A stretch of 63,626 nt of DNA from Candidatus Enterousia sp. (GTDB lineage Bacteria > Pseudomonadota > Alphaproteobacteria > Rs-D84), in assembly GCA_045629645.1 (NCBI GenBank), contig JAZQRR010000026.1:1-63626 (forward strand), given 5' to 3'. The notes under the pieces were generated by a model. The model searched no databases. It saw only the letters and a list, made by a program, of their open reading frames with translations, and was not told where the DNA came from. The position numbers and the translations under genes were made by a program. This document shows, in pieces, positions 39,338 through 62,113 of this stretch. Numbering within the stretch: the stretch's first letter is position 1; every line of letters starts with the position of its first letter.

Positions 39338-41062
39338 ATGAAAAAATTTTTCACATTTTTAACAGCTGTTTTTATGCCGTTTGCTGCGGTTGCATTGGAT
39401 TTGCCAAATGTATTGTCCGATGTTGACGCCAGTTTATATAAACAAATTTTTGAATTGCAAGATAAAGAAAAAATTAACACCGCAATCAATGTGGAAAACC
39501 AAATTGCGGATAGATTATTAATGAACGAGGTTTTATATCAACGCTATATTTCTGATTCTTATCGTACGCGTGGTGCAGAAGTCGCAAAGTGGATGGAACA
39601 ATATTATAATATGCCGGGCGCTAAACGTATGGAAAAACTGGGCAAAATAAAAAAGACTGTTGTGCGCAAGGCATCGGTGCCAAATATTATTAGTGGTTCA
39701 GAATCTATTGAGGCAGCCCAGTCAGAAACATGGACCGCAAAAAAATATTCGGGAAATGCAAATCAAAAAATTAATGATTTTAAACGTGCAATCAGAACCG
39801 GTTCTACCAAGATTGCAAGACAAATATTAGAAGAAAAATCTTTTAAAAAAAGTGTCTCGGAATCAGATTATGGCAGATTGGCAGGACGTTTGTCTTATTT
39901 GTATTACACAAATGGTGAAGTTGAATTAGCAAAAAAGTGGGGTTTTGTTGCATCAGATGCAAATTCTGAATATGGGTTGTGGTCCATGGGATTGTTGTAT
40001 TTCAAAGATGGTAATTATATCGAAGCACAGAAATATTTCAGTCGGATTTTGGATTTGCCACAAATAAATAATGCCCGCAAGACCGAGGCAGCATTTTGGG
40101 CAGGGCGGTCTGCTGATTACAAGGGGGACAGGGTAACCGCAAAGAAGTATTGGCGTATTGCGGCAACTTATCCGATGGCGTTCTATGGCGCATTGTCTGC
40201 AACAATGCTGGGCGAGACGCCAAAATACGAATTCTTTGAAGCAGACGCAACCCAAGAAGATATTGAACAACTGATGAAAACAAGATACGGAAAAATGGCG
40301 TTGGCGTTATTGCAAATCGGACGCAAGGACAGGGCCGAAGAATATTTAAGATATTTAATTACACCAAATGTGCCAGACAGGGTTTTGCATGCGGTTAATT
40401 CTGTGGCGTCTGAATATGCGTTGCCACGTGTGTCTGTTCAATCGGCAGGGCTTATCAAAGACAGGGGAATTTTGGAAATTGATGACGATATTATTTATTC
40501 TGCACAATATCCGTTGCCAGATTGGGAACCGTTGGGTGGATGGTCTATTGACAGGGCGTTGTTATTAGCAATTGCAAAACAAGAAAGTAATTTCAGAACG
40601 TCGGCAACATCATGGGCGGGGGCAAACGGCGTAATGCAGATAATGCCAAGTACTGCAAAGCGTGTTGCACGTGCAAATAAGATGGATTTATCGCAAATGG
40701 ATATGTCAAACCCTGAACATAATATGTTCTTGGGACAACAATATATTGTCGATTTGTTACAACATCCCAGTATCGAAAATAATATTATAAAAATGTTGGC
40801 GGCGTATAATGCGGGTATGGGTACAATGGTTAAATTTGAAAAGTCTTTTTATACATATGATCCGTTATTATATATTGAAAGTTTCCCAGCATATGAAACA
40901 CGCAGTTATATCAAGCGTGTAATGTCTAATTTATGGTTATATCGTGCCAGATTAAATCAGCCATTATCTTCGATGGGGGAATTGGCAAATGGCAATTGGC
41001 CACTGTATAACAGTGAAGATGAATATGTTCAGCAACAAGTTGCAGAACGTATGATGATATAA
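39338..41062 (+). CDS. slt: Soluble lytic murein transglycosylase (Slt70-like)
   Basis: Signal peptide and superhelical N-terminal region. SLT catalytic motif AIAKQESNFRTSATSWAGANGVMQIMPSTA. Confidence 0.85.
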   Translation: MKKFFTFLTAVFMPFAAVALDLPNVLSDVDASLYKQIFELQDKEKINTAINVENQIADRLLMNEVLYQRYISDSYRTRGAEVAKWMEQYYNMPGAKRMEKLGKIKKTVVRKASVPNIISGSESIEAAQSETWTAKKYSGNANQKINDFKRAIRTGSTKIARQILEEKSFKKSVSESDYGRLAGRLSYLYYTNGEVELAKKWGFVASDANSEYGLWSMGLLYFKDGNYIEAQKYFSRILDLPQINNARKTEAAFWAGRSADYKGDRVTAKKYWRIAATYPMAFYGALSATMLGETPKYEFFEADATQEDIEQLMKTRYGKMALALLQIGRKDRAEEYLRYLITPNVPDRVLHAVNSVASEYALPRVSVQSAGLIKDRGILEIDDDIIYSAQYPLPDWEPLGGWSIDRALLLAIAKQESNFRTSATSWAGANGVMQIMPSTAKRVARANKMDLSQMDMSNPEHNMFLGQQYIVDLLQHPSIENNIIKMLAAYNAGMGTMVKFEKSFYTYDPLLYIESFPAYETRSYIKRVMSNLWLYRARLNQPLSSMGELANGNWPLYNSEDEYVQQQVAERMMI

Positions 41063-41088
41063 AAAATCCCCAATTTGGGGATTTTTTT
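41061..41088. terminator. Stereotyped terminator palindrome
   Basis: AAAAAATCCCCAATTTGGGGATTTTTTT. Confidence 0.7.
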
Positions 41089-41464
41089 ATATTTGTTTAT
41101 CTTTGTATATTACCGCTTTGTATATATCGATTGTCTGCGGACTTTTAAGCATTGCCCATGTCCGTAGATGTTCAAGATTGTCAGTATATATTTTTTTCAT
41201 AACTTTACGTTTAGCCGAACAATTAAGTGATATCATTGTGGCAGTCAAGATAATAATCGCAATGTGTGTGGGCAGATTTTCAAAATTGCCGTCATATGCA
41301 GATGAAATGAAATCAATCAATGTTAGCAAAGAAACACCAGAACACAAGATGTTAGATATGTTTAACATCAATTTTTGGTCTTTTGATTCTTTTAACTGCT
41401 TGCCCAGTCTTGTATATCTATCTTGTAATGCAGCCGGTGAAAAAGGGTCTTGTTTTGTATTCAT
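41087..41464 (-). CDS. Small two-TM protein (125 aa), array member 5
   Basis: Polar N-terminus, two hydrophobic helices (ISNILCSGVSLLTLIDFISSAY and THIAIIILTATMISLNCSA) and a Lys-rich C-terminal helix. Confidence 0.55.
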   Translation of the reverse strand: MNTKQDPFSPAALQDRYTRLGKQLKESKDQKLMLNISNILCSGVSLLTLIDFISSAYDGNFENLPTHIAIIILTATMISLNCSAKRKVMKKIYTDNLEHLRTWAMLKSPQTIDIYKAVIYKDKQI

Positions 41465-41470
41465 ATTTGT

Positions 41471-41869
41471 TTACCGTTGTTGGTTTTGTTGTTTTGTTAT
41501 GTCAATGATTGGCATGTTCTTTCTGTTTGATTTTATGAATGCCAAATCTGTTTTTATATCTTCGATTTTTGTTTTTATATTTGCAATCTTTTCTTTATAT
41601 TCTTTTTGGGTGTTTATATTAATGATGGTTGAACCAATCGCAAGCAGTAAAAATAATGCAGGGGTTGTCGCATCGGAATAATTATCTTGTGAAAATGACG
41701 CGCCTATTCTGGCAGAATGCGTAATTGTTGCAACAATAGTTATAATATGGGCACTATTAAGTACATATTTGTCCAGAACATTGTAAAATTTTAAAAGTTT
41801 TTCCTGTTCTTTCAGTTCTTGCAGTTTTTCATCGTATTCATCGATAGGTTCGTAGATAAAAGTAATCAT
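41471..41869 (-). CDS. Small two-TM protein (132 aa), array member 4
   Basis: Same architecture as the other array members. Its start overlaps the upstream gene stop (ATGA). Confidence 0.55.
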   Translation of the reverse strand: MITFIYEPIDEYDEKLQELKEQEKLLKFYNVLDKYVLNSAHIITIVATITHSARIGASFSQDNYSDATTPALFLLLAIGSTIININTQKEYKEKIANIKTKIEDIKTDLAFIKSNRKNMPIIDITKQQNQQR

Positions 41870-42210
41870 AATGTTTTGCCTTGAATTTGATGAGTGTTAT
41901 TGATTTTTTTATCCATTACAGATTTTATTTTTTCTTCTAATTCTTGCTTATTTTTTTTGGTCTTTTTTTTGATGTATTCTAAAGTAGCGCCCGAAAAAAT
42001 CGCACACATAGAGCCCATTATGTGTACTGGGCAATACATTAAAGTATTGTATTCAATGTTGCGTGTCAATGCCCATATATTAAATGCCAGTATCGTACCA
42101 AACAAAACCTGACCCAGGTATGTTGTGTTTATCAAGTTTCGATATTGTCCGACATGACGTTCCAACATATACAAATATTGTTTATCAAAATCTGTTTCTG
42201 AGAAAGACAT
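41866..42210 (-). CDS. Small two-TM protein (114 aa), array member 3
   Basis: Same architecture (YLGQVLFGTILAFNIWALT and CPVHIMGSMCAIFSGATLEYI, then KKKTKKNKQELEEKIK). Confidence 0.55.
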   Translation of the reverse strand: MSFSETDFDKQYLYMLERHVGQYRNLINTTYLGQVLFGTILAFNIWALTRNIEYNTLMYCPVHIMGSMCAIFSGATLEYIKKKTKKNKQELEEKIKSVMDKKINNTHQIQGKTL

Positions 42211-42215
42211 ATTTT

Positions 42216-42563
42216 TTACCGTCTGTTTTGTTGCGATTGCATTTTTTGTATTTTGATTTTTGTTTTTTCTATTTCTGTATCAAGTTCATTTATTTGCTGT
42301 TTGTTTTTATTTTTTATACACTGGTTTAATACAAACAATAAGGCAGCCAATGGGATATTTGCTGCTTGTAAATACATCCATAAATCGTTGTCAAAATCCT
42401 TGATAAACAGTGTTGCTGATGCAATGCCAATTGAAAATACGCACACAGCCTGAGCAAATTTTGTGCCCTTGATTGTCTGTTGAGACTTTTGCTTTTGTTG
42501 TCCAAGCCATTGTAAATGGTCTTGATTTATTTTGATTAAGTAAAAAGTTTCATCTTTATGCAT
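42216..42563 (-). CDS. Small two-TM protein (115 aa), array member 2
   Basis: Same architecture (FAQAVCVFSIGIASATLFI and MYLQAANIPLAALLFVLNQCI, then a KNKNKQQINELDTEIEK coiled coil). Confidence 0.55.
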   Translation of the reverse strand: MHKDETFYLIKINQDHLQWLGQQKQKSQQTIKGTKFAQAVCVFSIGIASATLFIKDFDNDLWMYLQAANIPLAALLFVLNQCIKNKNKQQINELDTEIEKTKIKIQKMQSQQNRR

Positions 42564-42568
42564 ATCTT

Positions 42569-42889
42569 TTACCGTTCTTTTGTATTATTGTTTTTATTTG
42601 ATTTATAGATATTGTATGCCTGTTGTGCCGCATATGCCGAATTTAACAGGAACAGCAATGCTATAACAAGTCCTTCTTTGTTACACCCATTGTCAAATGA
42701 TTGAACTGTTGTCTTGATTGCATAACCCATAGCCAATCCAGATATTATGGTAAAAACAATAACAAGGACGTTATGACCATTGTTATTTGGCGATTTTTGT
42801 TGTCCGTTATTATTGTATTTGTTTACTGATAGTGTACTCATATTTTGTTGTCCGTTATTATTGTATTTGTTTACTGATAGTGTACTCAT
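42569..42889 (-). CDS. Small two-TM protein (106 aa), array member 1, whose N-terminus is duplicated
   Basis: MSTLSVNKYNNNGQQ occurs twice, followed by two hydrophobic helices. Confidence 0.5.
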   Translation of the reverse strand: MSTLSVNKYNNNGQQNMSTLSVNKYNNNGQQKSPNNNGHNVLVIVFTIISGLAMGYAIKTTVQSFDNGCNKEGLVIALLFLLNSAYAAQQAYNIYKSNKNNNTKER

Positions 42890-42890
42890 A
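42795..42890. repeat. Perfect 48-bp tandem duplication covering the start codon of array member 1
   Basis: TTTTGTTGTCCGTTATTATTGTATTTGTTTACTGATAGTGTACTCATA occurs at 42795-42842 and again at 42843-42890. Confidence 0.85.
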
Positions 42891-42973
42891 GTGTGACAAA
42901 GTATATTGTAAAATATATTTTTGTCAACAAAAAAGAGTTTGTGTTTATTTGCATTTGTGCTATCTTGCAGGGG

Positions 42974-44750: not shown

Positions 44751-44777
44751 AAAAATCCCCATTTGGGGATTTTTTTA
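44749..44777. terminator. Stereotyped terminator palindrome
   Basis: AAAAAAATCCCCATTTGGGGATTTTTTT. Confidence 0.7.
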
Positions 44778-45854
44778 ATTTATTGTTACAGGAATAATTG
44801 TTTGTTGTTTTGCGGTATCCAGTGAATGATACTGGAACGGTACTGTTGCAAAATCTATGTCTTGCATATTCAGACTGCGCAGTGTACGGTTGTACATTGT
44901 GTGATAATAAATAACACGGTTTTTTAAGTCGGTTGCAATTGTCCATTGTGTTGCAGATGGCATATTGTTTGGTGCGGCGCCAACTGCAAATTCAACCCCC
45001 AGTGGAACATCAAAATTGTTCAAGATATGAAACGCTTGTCTGATTGTGTCGATGGCGTTATCTTGTTGCAGTGAAAATGTTTTCAGAAATGCTGCGCGAA
45101 CAAAGCGTGATGGCGGTGTAAAGTCACCAGGCAGGCCATGAAACCCGGCCCCAGATCCAAAAGAGCGTAATGATATTGGACCGAATTTTAATGGGCCTGC
45201 GCCACCGGGGTGCAAGTTTACGTAATTATTCAGATTGGTCATATGCCATTGAAAACCAGGAGAATTTGTCAGTACGCCAATTTCATTTTCATAAAAGTTT
45301 GGAACACCGTTAACAATTTCCATAACAACCTGACGGCCGGATGGTTCTGTTATTCGCCAATGTACCGTTGATGAACGTTTGTCTACATTTATTATGCGAA
45401 CGTCATTAATTGCGGCTTTGACTTGGTCAATTGTGGCAAATCGCGACAGAATCCAAGATACAACTTGAAAGTCTGCCAATGAAATATCTTTGTCTTTTTC
45501 GTTGTATTCTTCGTATTTCCCATATTCAGGAAAGTAAAATAATGCGGCAGATAAACCGGCTTCGTTTGTGCCGTCTATGACAAATTCTGGTTGTTCAACC
45601 GCCAGTCCCGCATAGCCGTAAAGTGATATAAATGACAAGCCGTCCATTGTTCCATCAGGTAACAGCGATTGTTGATTATGTCCACGTGGAACGATTGTGT
45701 ACAGACTGTTGTTTTCTGATCCTGCCCAATCCATTGTTCGTGCAACGATTGTTGTGTTGTCGCGTGCTTTCAGGGTGATGCCGGTGCATGCATTTGCGTT
45801 TTGAATTAATGTCAGACACAGTGAAATTGTTGTGAATAAAATTATTTGTTTCAT
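44775..45854 (-). CDS. Choloylglycine hydrolase / penicillin V acylase family Ntn-hydrolase (exported)
   Basis: Signal peptide ending NANA, then CTGITLKARDNTTIVARTMDW. The Cys is the N-terminal nucleophile typical of this family. Confidence 0.75.
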   Translation of the reverse strand: MKQIILFTTISLCLTLIQNANACTGITLKARDNTTIVARTMDWAGSENNSLYTIVPRGHNQQSLLPDGTMDGLSFISLYGYAGLAVEQPEFVIDGTNEAGLSAALFYFPEYGKYEEYNEKDKDISLADFQVVSWILSRFATIDQVKAAINDVRIINVDKRSSTVHWRITEPSGRQVVMEIVNGVPNFYENEIGVLTNSPGFQWHMTNLNNYVNLHPGGAGPLKFGPISLRSFGSGAGFHGLPGDFTPPSRFVRAAFLKTFSLQQDNAIDTIRQAFHILNNFDVPLGVEFAVGAAPNNMPSATQWTIATDLKNRVIYYHTMYNRTLRSLNMQDIDFATVPFQYHSLDTAKQQTIIPVTIN

Positions 45855-61075: not shown

Positions 61076-62035
61076 TTAAACAACCTCGGTCACTGCGCGC
61101 AGTGAACCATCGCGTGACAGTTGTACAACGCGGATTTTCTTTTTCATTTCTGTTATCAAATCTGTTCGGTCGTATGCAGGTTGGGTGTGTAATATCCGGT
61201 CTGCAAAGGCAGCGTATGCAGCCTCGGCACTTTCGGCGTGGATAGTAGTGTAAAAGTGATCGTGGCCGGTACCCAACATTTCCCACAGTACAGATGCGTT
61301 GTCGGTTGATATTTCACCACCAATAATTACGTCTGGGGTCATACGTACAACCAAGTCTAATAGACGTGCGTAATTCATGTCGTTTGTTTGTTCTGTTCGC
61401 GATAATATAAAATGAACGCGATTCTTTTGCGGAACACGAATTTCACGGGCGTCTTCGACCGTGATAACACGACTGTTTTGATCAATCAGTGTCAGCATAT
61501 GGTTCAAAAATGTTGTTTTACCGGTTGCTGTTGCACCACTGACCAGAATAGGGCTGCCATCATTAATGGCGGACATCAGGCGTTCGTATGGATCGTCTGG
61601 ACGAACGTTTTCACGTGGTTTTACCTTTAATAATTGTTGCCCACGACGCAGATGATAATTTTCAAAACTGGTTTCATGCGCGCCACCACCGCGGATGTTT
61701 AATGCAACGCCGCCAGTGATGTCACGTTCGTCGTATTGAACGTTTGGTCCCGCAATCGCAGTAAAACGATGGTTGCCAGGTAATGTCGCATATACCACCG
61801 GCATACCATGTGTCGGGTTAAAAGGGCGTTCGTATATATTTGCAACAGTGTGAATCAAGTCAACAAGATATTGTTTGCTAAGTGTTTCGGATTGATATGA
61901 TACCCATGGAACACGTGCGCCATGTAAACGCATCCAAACTTCGCCTGCGTGGTTGATAGCAATTTCTTCTACAAATGAAGGTTTGTAGAATTCTTCCAAC
62001 GGTTTTAATAAAGATTCCAGAACAACATTAGACAT
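61076..62035 (-). CDS. virB11: VirB11/TrbB-family type IV secretion ATPase
   Basis: EEIAINHAGEVWMRL N-terminal domain. Walker A VSGATATGKTTFLN, Walker B/Asp box RVITVEDAREI and PDVIIGGEIS. Confidence 0.8.
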   Translation of the reverse strand: MSNVVLESLLKPLEEFYKPSFVEEIAINHAGEVWMRLHGARVPWVSYQSETLSKQYLVDLIHTVANIYERPFNPTHGMPVVYATLPGNHRFTAIAGPNVQYDERDITGGVALNIRGGGAHETSFENYHLRRGQQLLKVKPRENVRPDDPYERLMSAINDGSPILVSGATATGKTTFLNHMLTLIDQNSRVITVEDAREIRVPQKNRVHFILSRTEQTNDMNYARLLDLVVRMTPDVIIGGEISTDNASVLWEMLGTGHDHFYTTIHAESAEAAYAAFADRILHTQPAYDRTDLITEMKKKIRVVQLSRDGSLRAVTEVV

Positions 62036-62113
62036 ATATGTGATTTTATCATAAATCGTGGCTTGAATCAAAACAGTTTATTTGATAAAATTAAAAAAAA
62101 AGAGAGATAGAAT

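Follow-up and report, generated by a model that had tools for sequence, protein, structure and literature searches.

Why would a bacterium with a 906-kb genome keep five small membrane-protein genes in a row between slt and rnhB? The genes, here called A to E, lie on contig JAZQRR010000026.1 of a Candidatus Enterousia sp. assembly (GCA_045629645.1, 36 contigs), whose whole length of 63,626 nt is the window of this analysis. Members of Enterousia (order Rs-D84) are widespread, uncultured gut bacteria with reduced genomes of ~0.9 Mb and many hypothetical membrane proteins; they are probably partner-dependent and are thought to live off partner cells (PMC12306168). DNA sequencing runs that hold the locus came from pig-gut, bovine-gut, and manure metagenomes. 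Our answer, to which we assign a probability of about 0.35, is that A-E make up a constitutive membrane immunity- or exclusion-type set. We favor it because the locus is accessory, its alleles appear discrete and exchangeable, change falls in the membrane part of the proteins, and the promoter is strong and conserved. The locus is laid out as follows.

42569-42889, minus strand: gene A, 106 amino acids (aa), or 90 aa if the second ATG (42841) is used
42216-42563, minus strand: gene B, 115 aa
41866-42210, minus strand: gene C, 114 aa
41471-41869, minus strand: gene D, 132 aa
41087-41464, minus strand: gene E, 125 aa
42927-42900, minus strand: candidate sigma-70 promoter, TTGACA, 16-nt spacer, TATACT, 11/12 consensus matches
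42795-42890, minus strand: 48-bp perfect tandem duplication (2.0 copies, 100% match) of the start codon and first 16 codons of gene A
41061-41087, both strands: bidirectional intrinsic terminator, a strong hairpin serving the array (minus) and the convergent slt (plus)

A first-pass annotation of this DNA, made from the letters alone, had described five minus-strand open reading frames (ORFs) separated by 5-6 nt or overlapping by ATGA, and the ORF list and junctions agree with it exactly: A/B and B/C read TAA, 5 nt, ATG; C/D is an ATGA overlap; and D/E reads TAA, 6 nt, ATG. The genes are a tightly packed unit slotted between slt and rnhB. The operon-like appearance noted at first pass was strengthened by the 11/12 sigma-70 promoter and the terminator, and from this one promoter and one terminator we infer that A-E are transcribed as a single unit. 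The first ATG of gene A lies just 10 nt past the -10 element, so the leader would be very short or absent. Because of the 48-bp duplication, gene A has two in-frame starts, and the family alignment suggests that its start in relatives corresponds to the second ATG, at 42841. The duplication is polymorphic, being single-copy in one bovine-gut contig and two-copy in contigs L068 and L099. The 60-nt block that bears the promoter (42903-42962) was 98-100% identical in four related contigs and 90% identical in L105; in 3 of those four, the flanks were only ~88% identical despite the conservation of the promoter block. The terminator has the form AAAATCCCC-loop-GGGGATTTT, a stereotyped element with ~52 copies genome-wide. 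In metagenome assemblies, these repeats raised the depth 10- to 20-fold at 41048-41121, where many loose contig ends also accumulated.

What kind of proteins does this unit encode? On a Kyte-Doolittle scan, A, B, C, and E each had two hydrophobic segments 3-12 residues apart, and in the product of gene D the second segment was clear and the first weaker. By hydropathy, the transmembrane (TM) helices proposed at first pass were therefore recovered as two segments per protein, with the same reservation for the first segment of D. As read from the sequences, Lys/Arg-rich stretches lie on either side of the hydrophobic pair, so that by the positive-inside rule both termini would be cytoplasmic and the loop periplasmic. 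The connecting loops are acidic in A (FDNG), B (DFDND), D (SQDNYSD), and E (YDGNFEN); that of C (TRNIEYNTL) is not. The five products are thus probably small inner-membrane helical hairpins. For B, with predicted TM segments at ~36-57 and 61-83, the AlphaFold2 model consists of helices 2-53 and 60-114 joined by a 6-residue loop (mean predicted local distance difference test score, pLDDT, 84.5; predicted template modeling score 0.65). In this model the N- and C-terminal helices are predicted to extend the TM helices into an antiparallel cytoplasmic stalk, with the membrane part as the hairpin tip. The E model was all-helical at low confidence (pLDDT 56) and too uncertain for use. Foldseek searches with the B model against PDB and BFVD returned generic long hairpins only (colicin R-domains, Vipp1/PspA, and alpha-pore-forming-toxin tails), every one with an E-value of at least 0.047.

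The hairpin itself is the part of the originally proposed common plan (a polar N-terminal helix, two hydrophobic helices, and a coiled-coil tail) that holds throughout, and the tails of A and E depart from it. A Lys/Glu-rich coiled-coil tail is not universal: the tail of A has only 16 residues, and that of E is not Lys/Glu-rich, with a conserved C-terminus of its own (...SPxTIDIYKAVIYKDKQI). Nor is the polar N-terminal helix, as the N-terminus of A is Asn-rich and probably disordered.

A-E are five real genes. All five were intact in at least seven independent contigs from metagenomes or metagenome-assembled genomes (L067, L099, L102, L103, L104, L105, and L106), with product lengths of 87-90 aa for A, 115 for B, 116-118 for C, 132 for D, and 125 for E, in contigs that differ by up to 32% of protein sequence in B-E and up to 72% in A. 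Compared with L067, the ratio of non-synonymous to synonymous substitution rates (dN/dS) was 0.30 for A, 0.33 for B, 0.52 for C, 0.56 for D, and 0.22 for E, vs. 0.02-0.11 for pgk, rnhB, slt, nrdR, ccrM, and a choloylglycine-hydrolase-family (CBAH) gene. Across comparisons, B ranged from 0.33 to 0.37 and C from 0.36 to 0.52. Frames are thus unbroken in these contigs, with whole-gene ratios below 1 (0.22-0.56 overall), and the coding status assumed at first pass stands. For D and E together, the annotated frame had the lowest dN/dS of the six frames (0.31-0.40). An antisense ORF of 192 aa at 41103-41681 was considered as coding and rejected, since the annotated frame has the lower dN/dS. The array has a GC content of 31-33% vs. 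a genome mean of 39.5%, and its third-codon-position GC is ordinary for the genome; the low GC therefore reflects Lys/Asn/Ile-rich proteins rather than foreign DNA, and a recent foreign origin inferred from base composition was rejected on the same ground.

How stable is this arrangement among relatives? The first-pass annotation had placed the array in a conserved housekeeping neighborhood. The neighbors are indeed housekeeping genes, but the slt-rnhB slot is a hotspot of extreme variability within the genus, with contents ranging from no gene to >5 kb. Among 22 congeners, the slt-rnhB gap was 8-19 nt in 9 and 0.4-1.1 kb in 7, and in the remaining 6 slt was not within 6 kb of rnhB. Locus content differs between species from 0 to 5 genes, answering the earlier question of whether array size varies among related genomes. 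The locus is dispensable: it is missing in many congeners, and A is deleted in one strain, a pig-gut contig in which most of the gene (283 nt) is swapped for 23 nt.

Gene A is the widespread member. Iterated searches with hidden Markov models (HMMs) yielded a family of ~30 distinct two-TM members of 79-106 aa. Its motifs are NGxAxG (TM1), NGYD (loop), and, at the C-terminus, AQRxYxIY and then ...NQKQR. The family occurs in 49 of the 251 order-level genomes searched, all of the same genus, with one marginal match outside it; the analysis sampled >70 Enterousia genomes in all. Its usual place is beside rnhB in divergent orientation, where it is often chained to a family G gene upstream, a family F gene downstream, or a second copy of A, all of them small hairpin genes. 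A stands alone in 14 of the A-bearing loci, 11 have two hairpin genes, and 3 have three or more, a class that includes both five-gene loci, which the locus length truncated in this count. The five-gene version is known solely from the species cluster of the window, and no other such array was found in the same genome. Word-indexed homologue searches with B, C, and E found only close relatives (at least 68% identity; at least 72% for all relatives of B), and E has two allele classes that are 68% identical to each other. With the E profile, a full HMMER scan retrieved just 3 matches from 1.84 billion representative proteins, all from the same lineage type; a divergent E homologue (P0016, 136 aa) lies within another small-gene array on an 822-nt contig. 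The first-pass remark that no enzymatic or sensor partner is encoded alongside was upheld in the window locus and extends to the ~30 related loci. One candidate, a radical-SAM gene co-oriented with the family F gene and overlapping its stop codon in two species (L048 and L050), was rejected as a partner; its orthologue here (C2:24882-25916) sits in an unrelated operon with a U32-peptidase-like gene, so the adjacency looks like a rearrangement.

Within the species cluster, the alleles are recombination mosaics, reshuffled among strains. In sliding-window comparison with the window, L099 was ~100% identical across pgk, rnhB, and slt, while B, the first part of C, and the TM1 part of D were only 73-90% identical. 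In L067, L102, and L103, the flanks were ~88% identical and B 95-100%. Synonymous divergence (dS) of B and D was 0.065 vs. 0.37-1.2 in the flanking genes, i.e., six- to eighteen-fold lower. Each gene has two or three allele classes, which are combined differently by strain and shuffled relative to the genome background. Within genes, the N- and C-terminal segments of C occur in differing combinations among strains, and in D the last 46 residues do not differ between alleles, the variation lying in TM1 and the loop. In mixed samples, assemblies break within B-D.

Amino-acid change is concentrated in the membrane hairpins, and the cytoplasmic tails are constrained. For A, B, D, and E, regional dN/dS was 0.37-1.75 in the hairpin vs. 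0-0.29 in the C-terminal tail; the values for D were 0.81-1.75 vs. 0, and C gave 0.89 vs. 0.31 or 0.25 vs. 0.09 depending on the allele pair, all of these being ratios from small counts.

Other insertions and divergent genes were seen in and around the slot. In L068 (an ENA metagenome contig, positions 900-2480), B is cut after ~codon 88 by an inserted module that encodes a serine recombinase along with a Cro-like (DUF739/HTH_3) protein and a CI-like repressor, so such elements may integrate at this slot or in the 3' part of B. Between E and slt, L067 (7512-8072) and also L102, L103, L105, and L106 carry, on the opposite strand, a gene for a 186-aa Cys-rich protein with a signal peptide, which resembles Cys-rich secreted paralogues of this genome and is absent in the window and L099. 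On the other side, the CBAH gene (window 44775-45854) adjoins pgk; with 82% aa identity between strains and a dS of 1.4, it has diverged much further than the housekeeping genes around it (92-96% aa identity).

Did the five genes arise from one another? Old duplication had been proposed at first pass, and the comparisons did not support it. Blastp among A-E found nothing significant, and hhalign among the allele or family alignments of A-E, F, and G gave probabilities of 5% or less, equal to reversed-sequence controls, for every pair except D and G. That pair reached 41% (E-value 2.8e-4, 58 columns) vs. 1% for the reversed control, and D is probably a remote relative of genus family G. Weaker hints of a common origin may be seen in a shared C-terminal ending and a shared junction. 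The ending ...[NQ]x[KQ][QT]R-stop occurs in A, B, D, and subsets of F and G; neither form of it was found in the other 957 of 958 called proteins (8.5% of the 958 end in R). The sequence CGGTAAA.A.ATATG is common to 3 of the 4 gene junctions. By these comparisons, common descent of A-E is not demonstrable.

A-E also match no described family. No model in Pfam, NCBIfam, PADLOC, or PHROG scored above its cut-off for the five proteins or for 25 family members, PDB sequence searches with the A, B, and E profiles came back empty, and Rfam gave only terminator-driven noise.

What, then, could the set do? The pattern of the locus fits a conflict or recognition locus, and the immunity-like array suggested at first pass remains the most plausible functional class, as an interpretation of that pattern. 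The operon would be constitutively expressed as a membrane-embedded self-protection set, in which each hairpin would bind or occlude a membrane-acting challenge via helix-helix contacts in the inner membrane. Candidate challenges would be a toxin, a phage factor that acts in injection or lysis, or an incoming apparatus for secretion or transfer, and frequency-dependent selection would maintain different combinations of alleles among strains. Entry-exclusion and membrane immunity proteins such as SXT/R391 Eex and F TraS (PMC11493245) offer a precedent: they too are small, dispensable inner-membrane proteins with no enzymatic domain, and they have discrete, exchangeable allele classes within a species, a pattern that the two or three shuffled classes per gene seen here may match. 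By contrast, the array has no recognizable conjugative element or adjoining transfer genes, shows no sequence similarity to these proteins, consists of five different genes rather than one, and comes with no identified cognate donor protein or toxin.

Several observations weigh against a protective role. No cognate toxin, phage, or transfer gene was found in the locus or in the ~30 related loci, and no RNA-seq run was found to hold the locus. Immunity genes acquired against foreign toxins would usually have relatives outside the species cluster, and B, C, and E have none there. No segment showed a robust dN/dS >1, given the small counts. Because the periplasmic loops are only 3-12 residues long, they would offer little surface to an external ligand. 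Finally, co-translation of five similarly built proteins would be just as expected of the subunits of one complex.

That last possibility is the strongest competitor to the immunity or exclusion reading, and we consider it somewhat unlikely. A-E would be subunits of one hetero-oligomeric inner-membrane complex, a hairpin ring or bundle with a cytoplasmic coiled-coil collar and a lineage-specific envelope role, for example as a scaffold or accessory of type IV secretion or pilus-like machinery, or in membrane stabilization. The shared build and the 5-6 nt gaps or overlap would suit coupled equimolar synthesis, gene set and order are fixed in all close relatives, and elsewhere A is paired with G upstream or F downstream in the fixed order G-A-F. 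Conservation of the cytoplasmic tails points the same way. The genome could also supply a machinery for such a complex to serve: virB3 (96 aa) and virB4 (808 aa) lie at C27:27859-30572, a VirB11/T2SSE-type ATPase of 331 aa lies at the window end (61076-62071), and C27:10868-13568 encodes a further T2SSE ATPase together with a GspF-like protein. From these genes, the tiny genome seems to keep type IV secretion and pilus-like machinery. However, no secretion gene adjoins the locus, which is absent in many congeners and in one strain lacks A; partners vary by species; and the alleles of neighboring genes recombine freely, without co-adapted blocks.

An unlikely alternative is that the proteins are pore formers of SLATT/DUF4231 or holin type, which would depolarize the membrane as abortive-infection or lysis effectors. 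The resemblance to SLATT/DUF4231 drawn at first pass survives in topology and in sub-threshold Pfam echoes, and was not sustained by profile-profile comparison. A-E share with SLATT, DUF4231, and CyanoTRADDas_TM (PF18181, PF14015, and PF20712) a small two-helix hairpin with flanking helices, and the charged C-terminal tail likewise suits a pore former. The HMM echoes are weak: two alleles of B scored 12.9 and 16.0 bits against DUF4231 (cut-off 24.7), with no score for A, C, D, or E, and family F scored 21.3, 19.0, and 16.2 bits against CyanoTRADDas_TM (cut-off 24.3), 19.2 against SLATT_1 (cut-off 26.3), and 13.9 against SLATT_2. When A-G were compared by hhalign with an alignment of 10 DUF4231 domains from alphaproteobacterial genomes, probabilities were 0.1-6.4%, like those of reversed controls (B 0.3%; best C, 6%), and by inspection the DUF4231 motif that follows TM2, W..YR..AE.LK.E, is absent. 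SLATT proteins are predicted pore effectors that respond to nucleotide signals and travel with nucleotide-related partners (PMC7159879). By contrast, no SMODS, SLOG, TIR, reverse-transcriptase, or CRISPR partner was found in the window locus and the ~30 related loci, and the array comprises five different genes under one strong promoter, with no partner to make or sense nucleotides. Five pore formers under a near-consensus promoter and with no regulator would be self-harming.

Two further matches do not change this picture. The window allele of B matched PADLOC Csx23 (E-value 4.2e-4, 18.5 bits, profile positions 5-85 of 143), and membership in this family of type III CRISPR membrane effectors was rejected: only the TM part is covered and not the C-terminal cyclic-nucleotide-binding domain, the diverged B allele has no match, and the locus holds no cas genes. 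D matched PHROG holin phrog_10340 at an E-value of 0.035, the sole holin match. Class II holins do resemble the array in having 70-130 aa, two TM helices, both ends cytoplasmic, and a charged C-terminal tail. Still, the array differs in its row of five genes, its constitutive-looking promoter, and its lack of a lysis cassette or phage context. Neither C nor D matched any phage by tblastn, and nothing was found in a scan of IMG/VR with C or of JGI metagenome contigs with D. We therefore rejected a class II holin assignment and with it the holin-like label given at first pass: no holin profile reached its cut-off, there is no endolysin cassette, slt is a housekeeping, convergent gene present with or without the array, and these searches found no relatives in phages or viral contigs. 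Taken with the family comparisons, A-E do not look like nucleotide-triggered SLATT pores; a role in protection or exclusion suits them better than one as suicide pores of the SLATT or holin kind.

Could the hairpins instead act at a boundary between cells? It is a rather improbable idea that the rnhB-side hairpin operon (A with F, G, and B-E) encodes unrecognized, genus-wide cell-cell interface proteins of a partner-dependent bacterium. Possible forms would be hairpins delivered by VirB into a partner membrane, in the manner of Inc proteins, or hetero-oligomeric channels of combinatorial make-up, in which compatibility with partners or kin would depend on the alleles of the subunits. The first form corresponds to a more specific proposal, slightly more improbable still, in which A-E are translocated effectors with a bilobed hydrophobic domain, delivered by VirB into a partner or host membrane. 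Chlamydial Inc proteins have such a bilobed domain in common with little or no sequence similarity (PMC3656976, PMC3048545), and they resemble A-E further in their polar or coiled-coil flanks and their tandem, fast-diverging, dissimilar genes. The presumed partner dependence of the lineage (PMC12306168), the presence of virB3-virB4 and a VirB11-like ATPase, and Lys/Arg-rich C-terminal tails with a common ...Q/K-Q/T-R end would all be compatible with delivery. On the other hand, the locus is unlinked to vir genes, a type IV secretion signal is not recognizable from sequence here, and the positive-inside charges are those expected of proteins inserted in the usual way into the bacterium's own inner membrane. 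Inc proteins are moreover type III secretion substrates specific to Chlamydiae.

Far less probable is that A-E are diverged VirB2/TrbC-type pilin paralogues. The layout invites the comparison, as Anaplasma phagocytophilum has 8-15 tandem, sequence-diverse virB2 copies with two hydrophobic helices each (PMC3556328); both are alphaproteobacteria with a split vir set, tandem diverse two-helix proteins, and strain variation, and in Enterousia no virB2 was seen adjoining virB3-virB4. However, PF04956 (VirB2/TrbC) found no match among 25 family members at E-values up to 1, the N-termini are polar helices without a signal-peptide core or cleavage site, a charged tail of 30-45 residues forming a long helix follows helix 2 where VirB2 stops, and the array is not adjacent to virB4, which lies with virB3 on contig C27. 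The pilin reading thus appears largely refuted by architecture.

Least credible is that the ORFs are non-functional, whether chance open frames or decaying genes in AT-rich DNA: the 31-33% GC, the equally open 192-aa antisense frame, and dN/dS above that of neighboring genes lean that way, but frames and lengths kept in at least seven independent contigs despite up to 32% divergence (72% in A), the lowest dN/dS of six frames in the annotated one, tail dN/dS of 0-0.3, and genus-wide conservation of gene A argue against it.

What would an immunity or exclusion set mean for this lineage? Genomes this small seldom retain non-essential genes. A strongly promoted, dispensable, continually recombining locus in a tiny genome therefore points toward a live conflict or recognition function, even though quickly evolving orphan arrays of small membrane proteins are not unusual among gut bacteria. 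New here are three or more undescribed small-protein families (A, F, and G, to which come B, C, and E as orphans), their fixed genomic address beside rnhB, and a description of their population pattern. Families, address, and pattern together offer a practical starting point for experiments and a means of typing strains in metagenomes.

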